From assembly GCA_944390455.1 (NCBI GenBank), contig CALXPU010000005.1:9252-73251 (forward strand): DNA of 64,000 bases, read 5' to 3'. The position numbers were made by a program, and so were the translations under genes. Shown here piece by piece: positions 34,793 through 39,196 of the stretch (the stretch's first letter is position 1; each line of letters begins with the position of its first letter). Source of the DNA: an uncultured Alphaproteobacteria bacterium. GTDB taxonomy: Bacteria; Pseudomonadota; Alphaproteobacteria; RF32; CAG-239. The notes beneath the pieces were generated by a model that saw nothing but the letters and a program-made list of their open reading frames with translations, searched no databases and was not told where the DNA came from.

Positions 34793-37240
34793 TTAGACTC
34801 CATTAAGATATTTGGTTACGAATCCATCTTCACCAAATTCTTTTACGAGACTTTCTACGAGTAATACATTTTTAATGCCGGAATTGTACAATTTCAGATA
34901 TGGACCTAATCCGCTTAAATTTACATCCAAAATCACAGATTCACCTTCTCCGTTCTCTCCTGCATCCGGTCTTTTTAATAATATTGCATAAGGACAATCC
35001 CTATAAGATTTACCACTTATAAAGTCATATTCACTGTCAGTTAAATTCCATTTTGCATATGATTCAGGAGTTGCTTGAGTATTTCGGAAGAAAATCATAG
35101 TCTTACATTGTCCTCTTACTGCATCTCCTACGCCTAGCGTATCTACAATATTGGGTTGTTGGAATGCACACAAATAAGCTTGGCGCTTTTTACGTCCTTC
35201 TTGCAAACCTTTAATAAAGTTATCTCTAAACATTTCATGCTTTAACATCGGCGCCGTTTCATCAATCATAATGAGGGCTGGCGCTCCTGTTTCCGTACTT
35301 TCTGATTGTATTCTATGCATGATGTAACTAATTGAAGCTGCCGCCAATACATCATCATCAAAGATCTCTGTAAAGTCAAAAGCTACAAATCTATTTGAGC
35401 TTAAATCCAAACTGTCATGTTCCGCATTGAATATATTTCCATATTGATCTGGATTAATCCATCTATACAACTCTCGACGCATTGTACCTGTTGGCGAAAA
35501 ACAGCTCTTGTATAAGTTCTTCAGTACACGCTCTTCTGGTCGCAAGTAATCAAATGCTGTTGTTACCGCGCGTGCTGCTTCTCTTTCTGAGAGTGCATCA
35601 TTAGCCATAGTAATAGCTTTCAGCCAGTTACGTAAGAAGGCTCTGTTACTCATTGTATCCCTTGAATCAAATGGGTTCAACGATACATTCTTTCTATCAC
35701 CACTAAATCCTACATATGCCCCTTGCACCATATGAGTGAATATTTCCGCACCACGGTGTCTATCAAAGAAGTACACTCTCAAATCCCCATGTCGCATAGC
35801 TTGGCCGGCTAAAAATGTCAGTAATGTCGTTTTACCTTGACCGGTCGGTCCTACGATGCAACAGTGCGCCACCGCTGATTCTGCAGCTGATATATGGAAT
35901 TGAAATCTATATGGGGAGCCGCTCATGGTTCTGAATACGGTAATAGCACCCTCACCCCAGTCACTTCGTGGCAAACCTGTTGACAATTGCTCAAATGAAA
36001 CTGCCAAAGCGACTATTCTTGATAAATAAAAATATGTTCGCCCACATGTATCATAGCCCGGAAACTGATTAAAGAATGTTGCTTGTGCTATCCAATTTTC
36101 TCTTACTGGGGTTACACTGAAAAGACGGCATATTCTTTGAACTTCACTTTCGCCGAATTCTATTTCTTTAAGAGAATCACCTTTTAATATAAAGCTCATG
36201 GAATATTCAACTAAAGACTGGTGGTCTGCATCGCTATCTTCAATAGCTGCCAAAGCTTCGCTATATTGCGCTACTACATCTGATGAAAAACTTGTTACTT
36301 CCGCCATTTTTTGTTGTTGAACTAAAATCATACGTGCTTTAGGCTTAAATAGCGGATGAATATGGTGAAGAACTGTTAACTCGCAGTCTATTGCCAATAA
36401 TGAAGATATCATTCCTTCATCCATGTAGTCTCCGGAGTTTCTTATCCCCATAGTTAAAGCAAATTTTTCTTTTCCTCCTGAAAAGAATTTTATTATCCCT
36501 TCCTCGCCGGTGAAGTGTATACCATCCGAACTCAGCATTTCTTTTAACTGAAAACCTTGTGCTCCTCTAACTTTAGGGAGAGGTTTACTTATCGGATTTA
36601 GAACTCTGACAAAAGGATACACAGGGCTCATTTCAGCAGAACTCTCATCATCTTCGTATAGAACTTTTATACCATAGTCATTAAGGTTAGCCATGACTGA
36701 TTGAGATGCGAAGTTTAAATCTTTAACAGCATCTTTTCTGTCTTCTATTGATAAGATAATATAGTGGTCATTCTTATAAACACGACTTAAATTTTCACGC
36801 CATGTATCATCTACTATTTTAAGCCATTTATTTCCGAAATCCGCCTTATTTTTTTCCATCGGGACACGGTCACGTATTGTTAAAACACGGCACGTTACTT
36901 GCAAGTCTGCCATATTATCAAGCCAAGATTTTCTCGCCTCAAACATTGACATAATTGTTTCTTCACGGGCTGACGTTAAATCAACACCCTCCACTTTGAA
37001 TACACGCACATATGTTCCATTGCTACATCTTAGGGTTGAACCATCTGATAGTAGACTATCAAACGGCAAAAAGTCCGCAACCCTTGATTCACTTGGCTGC
37101 GGTAAAACCCATGTTCCAATTTTTGAAACTAATGAAATAGCTATGGCTGCTGCAGATATAATACCTAAAGTAGCAACAATCGCGTCTGCACTTTGCAAAC
37201 CCGCCATAAATAATGTGTAAAAATCAAAATCAAGGTTCAA
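34793..37240 (-). CDS. virB4: T4SS ATPase VirB4
   Basis: 815 aa. The N-terminal membrane-associated region and the VirB4/CagE/TrbE family Walker A motif VGPTGQGKTTLL are present. It overlaps virB3 by 11 nt. Confidence 0.9.
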   Translation of the reverse strand: MNLDFDFYTLFMAGLQSADAIVATLGIISAAAIAISLVSKIGTWVLPQPSESRVADFLPFDSLLSDGSTLRCSNGTYVRVFKVEGVDLTSAREETIMSMFEARKSWLDNMADLQVTCRVLTIRDRVPMEKNKADFGNKWLKIVDDTWRENLSRVYKNDHYIILSIEDRKDAVKDLNFASQSVMANLNDYGIKVLYEDDESSAEMSPVYPFVRVLNPISKPLPKVRGAQGFQLKEMLSSDGIHFTGEEGIIKFFSGGKEKFALTMGIRNSGDYMDEGMISSLLAIDCELTVLHHIHPLFKPKARMILVQQQKMAEVTSFSSDVVAQYSEALAAIEDSDADHQSLVEYSMSFILKGDSLKEIEFGESEVQRICRLFSVTPVRENWIAQATFFNQFPGYDTCGRTYFYLSRIVALAVSFEQLSTGLPRSDWGEGAITVFRTMSGSPYRFQFHISAAESAVAHCCIVGPTGQGKTTLLTFLAGQAMRHGDLRVYFFDRHRGAEIFTHMVQGAYVGFSGDRKNVSLNPFDSRDTMSNRAFLRNWLKAITMANDALSEREAARAVTTAFDYLRPEERVLKNLYKSCFSPTGTMRRELYRWINPDQYGNIFNAEHDSLDLSSNRFVAFDFTEIFDDDVLAAASISYIMHRIQSESTETGAPALIMIDETAPMLKHEMFRDNFIKGLQEGRKKRQAYLCAFQQPNIVDTLGVGDAVRGQCKTMIFFRNTQATPESYAKWNLTDSEYDFISGKSYRDCPYAILLKRPDAGENGEGESVILDVNLSGLGPYLKLYNSGIKNVLLVESLVKEFGEDGFVTKYLNGV

Positions 37241-37520
37241 ATTTGTGCCCTTTCACTTTGTATAAATTCTGTGGCACCACATTTGTTTGCCCAAAGGCTT
37301 GTATCATTCCTGATAAGTGAGGATCTTTTGCTCCAAGCGCAACAACAATTAAATGCCCCAGTACAATACTTATAATAAATACAAGGGGGTTTACATCTCC
37401 CATTCCGATTGCCATGAACATAAAAGGTATTTGCAATCCAGCATTTAACGCTGTCGGCAATACCGGCCCCCAGAATAATTTGGGAGGATTAGCTACCGCT
37501 TTTAATATTATATCTTTCAT
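37230..37520 (-). CDS. virB3: T4SS protein VirB3
   Basis: 96 aa. The N-terminus has the VirB3 pattern (KAVANPPKLFWGPVLPTALNAGLQIPFMFMAI), with two predicted transmembrane helices. Located directly upstream of virB4. Confidence 0.75.
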   Translation of the reverse strand: MKDIILKAVANPPKLFWGPVLPTALNAGLQIPFMFMAIGMGDVNPLVFIISIVLGHLIVVALGAKDPHLSGMIQAFGQTNVVPQNLYKVKGHKFEP

Positions 37521-37598: not shown

Positions 37599-37955
37599 CT
37601 AGCTGCCCAGGCTACTATGTGATACTGTATTCATATAAGTATCTTTGAATTCTGTTTGTAATTTTGCGTGACTTCCTGTGAAGTAGTCAATAATCGCACC
37701 AGTTGCAGAGAGCATAAACAAGCTGATAAAAATATATCCTAGGTGCTTAAAATTGATTTTTCCACTTATCGCTAAAAATGTAAACATAACGATACCAAAA
37801 CAAGATATTGCGTATGCAAATACACGCAACTGTGATGCGAAAGATATCGTTTTTTGCTTTAGCGACGCAAATACTCCTGCCGCCATTGCATCACCACTCA
37901 TTAATACAATTACAGCGATACACATTATGCAGAAAAACATACTTTTTTTCGTCAT
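37599..37955 (-). CDS. virB2: VirB2/TrbC-family pilin (paralog 3 of 3 in transcription order)
   Basis: 118 aa with a signal peptide (...DAMAAGVF) and two hydrophobic helices, the VirB2 architecture. There is an 11-nt gap to the preceding paralog. Confidence 0.6.
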   Translation of the reverse strand: MTKKSMFFCIMCIAVIVLMSGDAMAAGVFASLKQKTISFASQLRVFAYAISCFGIVMFTFLAISGKINFKHLGYIFISLFMLSATGAIIDYFTGSHAKLQTEFKDTYMNTVSHSSLGS

Positions 37956-37966
37956 CTCATCATCTC

Positions 37967-38290
37967 CTATGTTCCCAATGCGATATCTTCAGCGATTGAA
38001 GATGCTCCATCCGGCGCAAACATCGCAACAAACCCTGCGCATAAGCTAATTACAACCAGACCCAATATAATTGCGGTTAGCCACTTCCAGTTAATATTTC
38101 CGAAAAATCCGCCAATACATACTGCAATTATACCTACAGCTGAGGCTGGGTAAATAATTTCTCGTAATCCCGAGAAAATTTCTTGTCCTGACGAGATTAA
38201 AGAGCCAAAAGCACCGGCAGCATTTGCCGCTGAAGGTGCCAGCAAAATCAACATCAACAATGCGTAGAAAATTTTATTATCTCTTTGCAT
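37967..38290 (-). CDS. virB2: VirB2/TrbC-family pilin (paralog 2)
   Basis: 107 aa with a signal peptide (...SAANAAGAFGSL) and two transmembrane helices (IIAVCIGGFFG, ILGLVVISLCAGFVAMF). Confidence 0.65.
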   Translation of the reverse strand: MQRDNKIFYALLMLILLAPSAANAAGAFGSLISSGQEIFSGLREIIYPASAVGIIAVCIGGFFGNINWKWLTAIILGLVVISLCAGFVAMFAPDGASSIAEDIALGT

Positions 38291-38402
38291 CTCAAAATCT
38301 CCCCTATAATTATTTGTATTATATCACAAATTCATAAAAATATCTAGAAAAAAATGCGCAGCATCACTTACGATATCATGTTGTTTTTACTGTGTTTATT
38401 TG

Positions 38403-38428
38403 CTTGTAACAAAAACTTCACACTCTAG
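38403..38428 (-). promoter_or_regulatory. Conserved 23-bp motif (plus strand cttgtaacaaaaacttcacactc) upstream of virB2 paralog 2. It is a putative promoter or operator; the minus strand gives a -35-like TTGTTA, 17 nt, then TAAAAA.
   Basis: A near-identical copy sits at 39016..39038, upstream of virB2 paralog 1. This is a direct sequence comparison. Confidence 0.45.
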
Positions 38429-38502
38429 ATTTTTCTGTTTTTTCTTTTTTATTATCTCTCGTGTTTTTCTTACATGCTTTCGTTTATCAAAAATAATTTT
38501 TT

Positions 38503-38535
38503 AAATAAAAAAAAGGAGCGCTTTTCGCGCTCCCC
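38503..38535 (-). terminator. Rho-independent terminator downstream of the first virB2 paralog
   Basis: The minus strand reads GGAGCGC-GAAAA-GCGCTCC followed by a run of about 10 T. On the plus strand this is stem 38515..38521, loop 38522..38526, stem 38527..38533, preceded by A10 at 38505..38514. Confidence 0.75.
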
Positions 38536-38555
38536 TTTTCTTTATTTGTTGGTTA

Positions 38556-38906
38556 TTATACACCTGTACCAGAGTTAACAAATGTATCGCCTGTTTGACC
38601 AGAAGTAATGTTACCACCAGTAGCGTAGTTAACAATCGCACCTGCAGCAGCCAAAATAGCCAAACCTACAGCCAAACCAGCAAACCATGTCCATTTTACT
38701 TTTCCGAAAATAGCTTGGAACGCAATACCGATTAAACCGAACGCACCAACTACGAAAATAATGGTTTTAATATGTACGAACAATTGTAAAGCTTTGTCCA
38801 TACCTGTTTGCATAACACTGTCTTCTGCAAATGAAGCATTTGCAAAGAGCACTGTAAACACAAATGCTAAGGAGCAAAGTGTAAACATCTTTTTCAAGTT
38901 TTTCAT
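38556..38906 (-). CDS. virB2: VirB2/TrbC-family pilin (paralog 1, first in the operon). The start is taken at MKNLKKMF...; the ORF-track start at 38933 is 9 codons upstream.
   Basis: Signal peptide (...FANASFAEDS) plus two transmembrane helices (IIFVVGAFGLIGIAFQAIF, FAGLAVGLAILAAAGAIV). It is followed by a strong intrinsic terminator. Confidence 0.65.
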   Translation of the reverse strand: MKNLKKMFTLCSLAFVFTVLFANASFAEDSVMQTGMDKALQLFVHIKTIIFVVGAFGLIGIAFQAIFGKVKWTWFAGLAVGLAILAAAGAIVNYATGGNITSGQTGDTFVNSGTGV

Positions 38907-39012
38907 ATCAGTTCTCCTAAATTCATTATACATTAATTACTTTACAGCAAATTTAAAAAAATTTCAAGCCTTTTGACGGCCACCATCTTTGCGCTAACAT
39001 ATTGTTTTAATT

Positions 39013-39040
39013 ACTCTTTTATTCTTGTAACAAAAACTTC
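39013..39040 (-). promoter_or_regulatory. Second copy of the 23-bp virB2-upstream motif. It is the likely promoter or operator for the whole minus-strand vir operon, and possibly also serves the divergent gene at 39197.
   Basis: The sequence cttgtaacaaaaacttcacactc is identical to the copy at 38406..38428. The minus strand gives TTGTTA, 17 nt, then TTAAAA. It lies in the 263-bp intergenic region between divergent genes. Confidence 0.45.
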
Positions 39041-39196
39041 ACACTCCGTACATCTCCCTTTAAGCGTTTTTTATTTCTACTTAATGCGATTTTGTTGTTA
39101 TTAGTTTGTAAATATGCTTGCTAATGTTTTTATTTAATGTTTAAAATATGGTTAATTTCAGGTTTGGGCATTTATATTTAGGAAGCATCTTAATTT

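Follow-up and report, generated by a model that had tools for sequence, protein, structure and literature searches.

A conserved box upstream of two VirB2 pilin genes, a putative shared regulatory site in gut and rumen Alphaproteobacteria

Related loci and the layout of the pilin cluster

Tandem trwL (virB2) copies in the Bartonella Trw system are recent and mutually similar, and are thought to diversify the surface. As in Trw, a P-type type IV secretion locus here opens with tandem VirB2-type pilin genes, but the copies (26-31% identical) are ancient, unlike the recent copies of Bartonella. The trwL genes are mentioned in PMC2653234. In Anaplasma phagocytophilum, virB2 paralog promoters are bound by Tr1, and there as here several VirB2 paralogs belong to an alphaproteobacterial type IV secretion system and have separate promoter regions, bound in Anaplasma by one transcription factor (PMC13410764) and here putatively under one. 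However, the eight Anaplasma paralogs lie apart from virB3-virB4 and undergo tick/mammal switching, whereas here three copies stand directly ahead of virB3-virB4 and the two identical boxes described below point to co-regulation; moreover, Tr1 is a cI/Cro-type HTH protein, for which palindromes are expected, whereas the box here is a direct repeat. In Brucella, an 18-bp VjbR box marks the virB promoter, which IHF also regulates (PMC4602199); the same paper (with Sieira 2004 cited therein) places it under BvrR (OmpR family) and HutC as well. The likeness lies in a conserved box of ~18 bp at type IV secretion promoters, to which IHF and BvrR contribute in Brucella. In contrast to the single Brucella promoter ahead of virB1, whose VjbR box is shared with the effector genes vceA and vceC, the box here is duplicated inside the cluster and was found at pilin genes alone; the two boxes are unrelated in sequence, and IHF enters as a consensus match only. 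In Caulobacter crescentus, CtrA sites upstream of pilA tune the amount and timing of expression (PMC11264516). This too is an alphaproteobacterial pilin gene with elements well upstream of the core promoter, there response-regulator direct repeats of the form TTAA-N7-TTAA; but PilA is a Tad/Flp-type pilin and not VirB2, its gene has four degenerate sites (one at -35), and the box described here (TGAA-N7-TTAC), at most a candidate CtrA site, matches the CtrA consensus at 6/8 core positions. A pilin gene with its own promoter and terminator, and an operator shared by secretion promoters, are thus principles known from Anaplasma, Brucella and Caulobacter; the value of the present locus is therefore local rather than conceptual, and the shared box is a solid yet fairly ordinary piece of gene-control wiring.

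The host lineage is widespread in human, mouse and ruminant gut metagenomes, and has an unusually expanded chromosomal type IV secretion system adjoining a type IVb pilus. The head of the cluster in the window (the whole stretch of DNA that was analysed, 64 kb) contains the following genes:

38906..38556, minus strand: VirB2/TrbC pilin paralog 1 (116 aa; Pfam PF04956, 38.1 bits)
38290..37967, minus strand: VirB2/TrbC pilin paralog 2 (107 aa; PF04956, 33.3 bits)
37955..37599, minus strand: VirB2-like paralog 3 (118 aa; PF04956, 20.7 bits, under the cut-off)
37520..37230, minus strand: virB3-like ORF (96 aa; assigned by position only)
37240..34793, minus strand: VirB4 ATPase (TIGR00929, E 1.6e-113)

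Paralogs 1 and 2 pass the gathering cut-off of the TrbC/VirB2 family (PF04956, 27.9 bits), whereas paralog 3 falls below it and is tied to the family by BLASTP (E 9e-10 against paralog 1, E 9e-8 against paralog 2). Each of the three translations reads as a signal peptide followed by two hydrophobic helices (predicted cleavage contexts, at the slash: ...ASFA/ED, ...ANA/AG and ...AMA/AG for paralogs 1, 2 and 3), and the genes lie directly ahead of the virB3-like ORF and virB4, the neighborhood expected of VirB2. The Pfam and BLASTP results, the layout and the adjoining virB4 bear out the view of the earlier note that three VirB2 paralogs head the operon. The true start of paralog 1 is the ATG at 38906, preceded by an AGGAGA ribosome-binding site; paralog 2 is the first gene of a long operon, and paralog 3 begins 11 nt after it, without a promoter module of its own. 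The virB3-like ORF sits between the pilins and virB4, overlaps the virB4 start and is 83-99% conserved in relatives; it had no match in Pfam or NCBIfam. The pilin proteins had no match in NCBIfam, nor had the region any in a plasmid database (blastn, distant mode). Pairwise identity among the pilins is 26-31% (27% for paralog 1 against paralog 2) and their order is kept in most relatives examined. Paralog 1 is the best conserved of the three across species, and the assembly collection contains 116 blocks in which a protein identical to it is recorded.

A conserved box at two pilin genes

Paralogs 1 and 2 are each preceded by a copy of the same 23-mer, whose conserved core, 18 nt long, lies about -111 to -94 from the predicted start of the respective promoter (P1 or P2, below):

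39024..39046, minus strand: box 1 (23-mer), core TGTGAAGTTTTTGTTACA at 39043..39026
38403..38425, minus strand: box 2 (identical 23-mer), core TGTGAAGTTTTTGTTACA at 38422..38405

The earlier note had reported this duplication; the two copies are real, while the positions it assigned to them (39016-39038 and 38406-38428) need shifting by 8 and 3 nt. With up to three mismatches allowed, the 64 kb still contain the 23-mer exactly twice, and any match was found in 0 of 100 shuffled sequences. In a weight-matrix scan of the window the two boxes scored 36 bits and the next best position 10 bits.

Among five species fetched by protein similarity rather than by motif, the 18-mer is 84-90% identical, whereas the 40 nt upstream of it are 31-33% identical, about random. 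All relatives examined had the box ahead of both paralog 1 and paralog 2, and between strains it is invariant while the stretch from the terminator of paralog 1 to box 2 is hypervariable, with an indel of 11-12 nt. This island of conservation points to a cis-regulatory element, selectively maintained and common to both promoter regions, and to that extent supports the earlier proposal of a duplicated promoter or operator cassette. Identity of the boxes at 23 of 23 positions is no relic of a recent duplication, since the pilin paralogs are only 26-31% identical to each other. The two sites of one genome share 94% of their bases and vary in concert (in the distant relative L017, both sites read TTAAAC...GG), a pattern that would fit two candidate targets of one protein, although some of the identity within a genome could stem from gene conversion between them.

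An exact scan of 185,579 species genomes for the 18-mer returned 42 matches, of which 15, from 12 gut or rumen Alphaproteobacteria MAGs, precede virB2-family genes by ~120 nt. Matches outside the virB2 lineages (Gastranaerophilales, Nanoarchaeota, Tenacibaculum coding regions and singletons) appear to be at about the level of a rough chance estimate, or to reflect conserved coding sequence. The window's own species was not among the genomes matched and copy number was therefore taken from three sister genomes, each of which has exactly two copies, both at these pilin positions and nowhere else; these are incomplete MAGs searched by exact 18-mer matching, in which degenerate copies would be missed. 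The counts speak against the earlier worry that the 23-mer might be a generic genomic repeat, and the further copies once envisaged, such as ones ahead of unlinked virB6 or virD4, were found neither in the window nor (as exact 18-mers) in the three sister MAGs. What the sequences show is that the elements are present and conserved, that their spacing is kept and that they belong specifically to virB2-family genes. The association extends to a stand-alone virB2-like gene in another genomic context, whose product is 42% identical and which is preceded by the box, 60 nt, TTGACT, 17 nt and TAGCAT. In a rumen lineage of three genomes (L039, L072 and L086) the box is inverted, 96-98 nt upstream of the pilin ATG, and its half-sites are split by an extra 10 nt.

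Could such a box persist without a dedicated regulator, through a structural role of the DNA (phased T-/A-tract curvature or a nucleoid-protein site), with gene conversion perhaps adding to its uniformity? The T5 tract in the box and the A-tracts at +7 to +12 and +19 to +25 after it would suit this explanation, as would the higher identity between sites within a genome (94%) than between species at one site (84-90%). We nevertheless regard it as quite improbable: curvature elements tolerate change, yet the G, C and flanking bases of the box are invariant while the pilins are only 42-75% identical, and the inverted, split half-sites of the rumen lineage resemble the grammar of a protein site. 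Gene conversion in turn would require sharp tracts of 18-23 nt to recur in every lineage, which is implausible, and would leave conservation between species unexplained.

Core promoters, IHF-like elements and the terminator

Five further features complete the two promoter regions:

38939..38967, minus strand: predicted core promoter P1 (TTGAAA, 17 nt, TAAAGT; 9/12 in a promoter scan)
38318..38346, minus strand: predicted core promoter P2 (TAGATA, 17 nt, TGaTATAAT, an extended -10; 10/12 plus TG)
38995..39007, minus strand: IHF-consensus-like element 1 (AAACAATATGTTA, 8/9 to WATCAANNNNTTR)
38374..38386, minus strand: IHF-consensus-like element 2 (AAACAACATGATA, 7/9 to WATCAANNNNTTR)
38507..38541, minus strand: intrinsic terminator after paralog 1 (A-run, 7-bp GC stem, T8)

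The -35 elements of P1 and P2 each start exactly 60 nt after the TTAC of the respective box, and in all site-1 copies box and -35 are 59-60 nt apart, with unconserved sequence between. At P1, a TTGAww -35 and a -10 of the form TAnnnT are conserved in 12 species (TCTAAT in L017), and at P2 all 11 aligned relatives (11/11) have an extended -10 of the form TGnTAnnnT, mostly TATAAT or TATACT. Both proximal sites thus have the features of sigma70 core promoters and are predicted to act as such, with transcription starting near 38932 (P1) and 38311 (P2).

The box had itself been proposed to be a promoter, in which TTGTTA would serve as -35 and, 17 nt further on, TAAAAA or TTAAAA as -10. An activator might overlap this -35 in the manner of CtrA, and on such a model a distal and a proximal promoter would stand in tandem ahead of each pilin unit, with a leader of ~90 nt. 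Hexamers and spacing are indeed present on the coding strand at both copies, the 22 sites compared have a semi-conserved T-AAAA-C-AA block at +17 to +25 from the box, and the spacing of 16 nt between a TTAA-like half-site and an AT-rich hexamer recurs at the canonical TTAA-N7-TTAA upstream of a divergent pilus operon; in CtrA-activated promoters, moreover, the site usually lies at -35 (PMC11264516). The pair scores only 8/12, however, and lacks the final T of the -10, the best-conserved feature of a sigma70 -10 (the position is A in about 71% of the 22 sites), for which reason it is absent from the promoter-scan list that includes the proximal sites. A -35 would leave the 11 conserved bases upstream of TTGTTA unexplained, the IHF consensus fits the semi-conserved block better, and the predicted leader has no conserved RNA structure. 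In addition, the box faces away from the pilin gene in the rumen lineage, and a fixed 59-60 nt to a better-conserved sigma70-type site would be needless. The box is probably not a core promoter, and we consider this explanation unlikely. Other sigma-factor readings (sigma54, sigma28 and ECF/sigmaE type) were compared by eye with their consensus sequences and none fitted; for sigma54, the window has TAG where GG is required. A leader peptide of 15 codons upstream of paralog 1 was also discarded, being unconserved at site 2 and having non-synonymous strain substitutions.

The two IHF-like elements stand in the same register (+20 to +32 after the box), with the A-tract at +7 to +12 ahead of them. 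In a fixed-register scan, the match to the IHF consensus at register +20 averaged 6.45/9 over 22 sites against a background of 3.24, and at least 8/9 was reached in 9/22 sites against 0.12% of background positions. The elements thus combine WATCAANNNNTTR with an AT-rich tract upstream, as expected of IHF sites, though as a consensus match only, and it is only from this match in AT-rich DNA that we infer a bend.

The terminator stem (38533..38515; GGAGCGC-GAAAA-GCGCTCC, then T8) comprises 7 GC-stem pairs, or 15 pairs with the flanking A:U pairs included, and has a folding energy of -21.9 kcal/mol (z = -6.4 against shuffles). Relatives have a hairpin and T-run in this position too, but their stems differ entirely in sequence (in four of them GGAGCGCG, GGCGTCGC, GGGGAG and GATCGGAAG, all followed by a T-run; -22 to -36 kcal/mol), so the terminator is conserved across species by structure, through compensatory changes in the stem. 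Energy, z-score and structural conservation agree with the earlier description of a strong terminator after the first pilin. In L017, a 601-aa gene is inserted between terminator and box 2, and the terminator stays with gene 1 and the box with gene 2. Given the predicted terminator, paralog 1 would form a stand-alone transcription unit, and the succession of promoter, gene and terminator likely marks it as the major pilin.

A read-through transcript would include box 2, which lies ~80 nt past the terminator, so the element might instead act at the RNA level, as part of a leader, as a small RNA or as a processing site in transcripts from further upstream. Rfam gave only a sub-threshold, terminator-like match that falls on the terminator (SpF25, 30.4 bits against a cut-off of 48), and a consensus fold of the leader computed with RNAalifold had -1.4 kcal/mol and no covariation, on which grounds RNA-level explanations were dropped; there is also no co-oriented transcript upstream of box 1, and the box is inverted in the rumen lineage. 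We regard action at the RNA level as very improbable.

A shared upstream site and its candidate regulators

With moderate confidence, we consider it probable that a single sequence-specific DNA-binding protein recognizes a far-upstream site (UAS or operator) with the 23-mer at its core, and that this site belongs to a module of ~150 bp. The module, duplicated together with the pilin gene long ago, would consist of the 18-bp box at about -111 to -94, an A-tract, an IHF-like bend site at about -75 to -63, the -35 at +60 from the box, the -10 and then, ahead of the ATG, a short leader and a strong ribosome-binding site. Module 1 would drive paralog 1 alone, and termination of its transcript would allow the presumed major pilin to be made in large excess. 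Module 2, beginning directly after the terminator, would drive paralogs 2 and 3, virB3 and virB4, and probably also the rest of the ~30-kb type IV secretion cluster. With a predicted promoter module of the operon in that position, the terminator-limited read-through once proposed to feed the downstream genes is not supported. Since both modules have the same box in the same geometry, the two units would be under the same regulator with decoupled outputs; the identical boxes suggest co-regulation rather than differential expression of alternative pilins, as had been envisaged, and the terminator would decouple amounts only. We infer protein binding, the identity of the regulator and the transcription starts from sequence, and as to the sign of regulation we lean to activation. 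It is worth noting that a site centered near -103 is far upstream for a sigma70 activator, and that the model relies on a bend of the IHF type.

As a direct repeat, the box can be written TGTKA-N6-TGTTA. Its period is 11 bp, counted from the start of TGTGA to that of TGTTA, and a third element, GTTA or GATA, follows 33 nt further on. Direct repeats with such a period are typical of winged-helix response regulators of the OmpR/PhoB/CtrA family, and the box looks like a putative OmpR/CtrA-family site. In Escherichia coli, OmpR sites at ompF and ompC include F1 (TTTACTTTTGGTTACATATT) at about -100, and IHF also acts at ompF. The box resembles these sites in its apparent tandem half-sites of 10-11 bp, in GTTACA with a T-run and in its place near -100 of a predicted sigma70 start, where the high-affinity OmpR site lies. 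The half-sites of the box agree at only 4/5 bases, and its N7 spacer is as invariant as the half-sites, which is more than a simple response-regulator site would need. The window boxes fall short of a CtrA box, with TGAA-N7-TTAC matching TTAA-N7-TTAA(C) at 6/8 core positions; two distant relatives (L013 and L017) have TTAA-N7-TTAC, at 7/8 core positions one base from the CtrA consensus. The box was also read as a CRP/NtcA-type palindrome (TGTGA-N8-TTACA), and this was rejected: the TGT-N12-ACA spacing is wrong for the family, and the left half is lost at site 2 of L013 and L017, where the direct-repeat reading survives. No regulator gene was found among ORFs of at least 150 aa in the window. 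The box is sharply defined and pilin-specific. DNA-affinity capture with it, or an analysis of co-occurrence across MAGs, could lead to the regulator, and it could be used to predict co-regulated genes.

A more specific version of the shared-site explanation is tentative and, in our judgement, somewhat doubtful. Here the box and the phased IHF-like site, kept with the 60 bp fixed at two anciently duplicated promoters across the gut/rumen Alphaproteobacteria MAGs sampled, would form the operator of a dedicated pilin regulon under a CtrA- or OmpR-family response regulator, coupling the type IV secretion pilus to the cell cycle or to a host/gut signal. On this version the same factor may also act on the adjacent type IVb pilus operon through a canonical box, and a perfect TTAA-N7-TTAA is found at 39141-39155, in the same intergenic region and upstream of that divergent operon.

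Pilin paralogs and their neighbourhood

The DNA comes from an uncultured gut Alphaproteobacterium and carries three pilin genes (paralogs 1 to 3), followed by a virB3-like ORF and then virB4.

Pilin genes and predicted promoters
38906..38556, minus strand: paralog 1, VirB2/TrbC pilin (Pfam TrbC/VirB2, 38.1 bits)
38290..37967, minus strand: paralog 2, VirB2/TrbC pilin (Pfam TrbC/VirB2, 33.3 bits)
37955..37599, minus strand: paralog 3, VirB2-like (Pfam TrbC/VirB2, 20.7 bits, under cut-off; BLASTP homology to paralogs 1 and 2)
38967..38939, minus strand: predicted promoter P1 of paralog 1, TTGAAA-17-TAAAGT (promoter scan)
38346..38318, minus strand: predicted promoter P2 of paralog 2, TAGATA-17-TATAAT with TG extension (promoter scan)

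Relative to the Pfam gathering score of 27.9 bits, paralog 3 fell short, but it is homologous to the other two by BLASTP (E = 9e-10 and 9e-8) and shares their arrangement, a signal peptide plus two hydrophobic helices. Pairwise identity among the three was only 26-31%, so they appear to be ancient duplicates. Paralog 1 is the best conserved of the three, and an identical protein was found in 116 blocks of the assembly collection, MAG GCA_949282825.1 among them. The cluster downstream is a divergent, expanded P-type type IV secretion system with the following content.

Type IV secretion cluster content
Two VirB8 paralogs
VirB9 with a SPOR domain
A 2092-aa beta-flower/RHS-repeat protein, between virB9 and virB10
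VirB10, 1453 aa, with beta-flower repeats
VirB11

The unusually expanded cluster (window 8349-34713) also encodes a 1793-aa protein and several proteins of 232-727 aa with no family match. Neither a coupling protein (VirD4) nor a relaxase was found within the 64-kb window. An R64-type type IVb pilus operon is transcribed divergently from 39197, and the whole block is chromosomal, flanked by dnaA-dnaN-recF/yidC and ATP synthase F0 genes.

The observation in the earlier note of an identical 23-mer upstream of paralogs 1 and 2 was confirmed, with its coordinates, off by 8 and 3 nt, corrected to 39024-39046 and 38403-38425; the interpretation placed on it was partly supported. Exactly two copies occur in the 64 kb, even at three mismatches (0/100 shuffles with any match). 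The terminator proposed after paralog 1 also stood, as a GGAGCGC-GAAAA-GCGCTCC hairpin followed by T8 (−21.9 kcal/mol; z = −6.4 versus shuffles). It is kept as structure, not sequence: in four relatives the stem at this position is wholly different, yet a T-run always follows.

Conservation and specificity of the box

To establish conservation, relatives were chosen by protein identity, not by motif. In four such loci (paralog 1 identity to that of the window: L011, 88%; L013, 81%; L015, 74%; L017, 71%), the 18-nt core of the 23-mer, TGTGAAGTTTTTGTTACA (the box), was present upstream of both paralogs 1 and 2. Identity between species was 84-90% across the core; across the 40 nt upstream it was 31-33%, approximately random for the base composition. 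Among strains of one species, the stretch from the terminator to box 2 was hypervariable (an 11-12 nt indel and many substitutions) and the box was invariant. Within one genome, sites 1 and 2 were 94% identical and covarying, with L017 reading TTAAAC...GG at both sites and most other species TGAAGT...AA/AG. Gene order was the same in three of the four loci; L017 differs in having a gene between paralogs 1 and 2, with the terminator remaining with gene 1 and the box with gene 2, which supports assigning each element to its unit. The inserted gene (L017:3673-5478; 601 aa, function unknown) is oppositely oriented and sits after the paralog 1 terminator and before box 2.

The earlier note had raised the possibility that the 23-mer is a ubiquitous generic repeat. 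With a weight matrix built from 22 sites, the two boxes in the window scored 36 bits, and no other position scored above 10 bits. An exact 18-mer scan of 185,579 species genomes returned 42 matches. In 12 gut or rumen Alphaproteobacteria MAGs, 15 of these precede virB2-family genes by about 120 nt; CASFTO, CASDOS and CASFSV each had two copies and no more, both where expected. The remaining matches fell in conserved coding regions of unrelated taxa, or were singletons close in number to a rough chance estimate. Among the matches listed from a metagenome collection, at least nine more contigs had a virB2-family gene adjoining the box. A stand-alone virB2-like gene in another genomic context (L042, 42% identical) kept the box, the 60 nt and a TTGACT-17-TAGCAT promoter. 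From these scans and L042, the box belongs to virB2-family promoters and is not a generic repeat. The product of the L042 gene (L042:5972-6739) is extended at its C-terminus by a Gly/Ser-rich stretch of about 100 aa, and the gene adjoins neither virB3 nor virB4. Further copies upstream of other genes had also been suggested, but exact 18-mer searches of incomplete MAGs yielded none outside the virB2 family in these lineages. Exact matches to the 18-mer also occur about 140 nt before a porin gene in an unrelated proteobacterial lineage (L037:3045-3200, L075) and, at a similar distance, before a zapA-like gene in a Rickettsiales MAG (L027:1283-1443, L103), and either may be chance; the porin case is reminiscent of OmpR sites such as ompF F1. 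A 1098-nt metagenome contig (L100:94-1067) has two modules of the paralog 1 type, spaced 956 bp apart and identically flanked; either the major pilin unit has been duplicated in tandem there, or the contig was misassembled.

The box as a probable upstream site

At both copies of the 23-mer, the TTGTTA, 17 nt, TAAAAA/TTAAAA hexamers previously read as a promoter are present as described, but they score 8/12, lack the final T of the −10 (A in ~71% of sites) and were not listed by the promoter scan. The proximal sigma70 promoters of the two genes are better matches and more conserved: P1 retained its −35 (TTGAww) and a −10 of the form TAnnnT (TCTAAT in L017) in 12 species, and the extended −10 of P2 (TGnTAnnnT) was retained in 11/11 aligned relatives. 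In the window, the proximal −35 hexamers of both genes begin exactly 60 nt past the TTAC of the box; the distance was 59-60 nt in every site-1 copy, with the intervening sequence unconserved. Box-to-promoter length is constrained, unlike the region upstream of box 2, where indels occur even between strains. A semi-conserved block at +20 to +32, preceded by an A-tract, fits the IHF consensus WATCAANNNNTTR (mean 6.45/9 matches versus a background of 3.24), and 9 of the 22 sites reached at least 8/9 versus 0.12% of window positions. One rumen lineage (L039, L072, L086) carries the box in inverted orientation, 96-98 nt ahead of the pilin ATG and with diverged flanks; forward half-sites come after it, set an additional 10 nt apart (GTGAAcTTTT-N10-TGyTAC; L039:300-440, L072:1327-1439, L086). 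Because of the proximal promoters, fixed spacing, missing final T, IHF-like block and rumen inversion, the box is most likely an upstream protein-binding site, an operator, rather than a core promoter. The proposed "duplicated promoter or operator cassette" holds as a conserved regulatory site, but not as a core promoter.

An RNA-level role for the box was excluded as far as computation allows, with neither an Rfam family nor a conserved RNA structure found for the element. The inverted box of L072 points towards a tRNA gene, with 67 nt between it and the start of that gene's TTGATT-17-TATACA promoter. Immediately before the paralog 1 ATG, TGTATAATGAATTTAGGAGAA (window 38912-38932) is almost invariant in 12 species, exceeding the need of a ribosome-binding site alone; since it contains TATAAT but lacks a matching −35, it may serve as a second promoter or in translation control.

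Proposed module and candidate regulator

These features would form an ancient module of ~150 bp, duplicated together with its pilin gene: box (about −111 to −94), A-tract, IHF-like bend site matching the consensus (about −75 to −63), sigma70 promoter, short leader and strong ribosome-binding site. Gene 1, with module 1 ahead of it and the terminator behind it, would be transcribed on its own, presumably as the source of the major pilin. Paralog 3 begins 11 nt after paralog 2 and has no regulatory module of its own; module 2 would drive paralog 2, paralog 3, virB3, virB4 and probably the rest of the cluster, in place of the terminator read-through earlier suggested to feed the downstream operon. 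The terminator would decouple the amounts made from the two units. Identical boxes in identical geometry imply that both units would be co-regulated by one factor, which runs against the differential expression of alternative pilins previously envisaged.

The principle is already known. In Anaplasma phagocytophilum, Tr1 binds the promoter regions of the eight virB2 paralogs (PMC13410764); the Brucella virB promoter carries an 18-bp VjbR box that effector genes also have, with IHF and BvrR contributing to regulation (PMC4602199); and at Caulobacter pilA, CtrA sites upstream of the −35 one tune timing (PMC11264516). The window locus resembles these cases as a new example of their known kinds. 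As far as we found, no description of the box sequence itself exists; the lineage is uncultured.

The box can be read as a TGTKA-N6-TGTTA direct repeat whose period is 11 bp, a grammar typical of OmpR/PhoB/CtrA-family response regulators; no regulator gene was found within the 64-kb window. In L013 and L017 the box reads TTAA-N7-TTAC, one base off the CtrA consensus, and the window box, TGAA-N7-TTAC, falls outside the CtrA-box class. A perfect TTAA-N7-TTAA (TTAACCATATTTTAA), the canonical CtrA-box form and including the TTAACCAT variant, lies at 39141-39155 in the same intergenic region as box 1, ~45 nt before the orf463 ATG; orf463 opens the divergent type IVb pilus operon. This perfect repeat was invariant in 10/11 relatives, with one substitution in L015, and only the rearranged locus L043 was without it. 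The site is followed by 16 nt, TTATAT and then an AGGAAG ribosome-binding site, and is adjoined by a second conserved block, AGCAAGCATATTTACAAACTAATAACAACAAAAT (~39090-39122).
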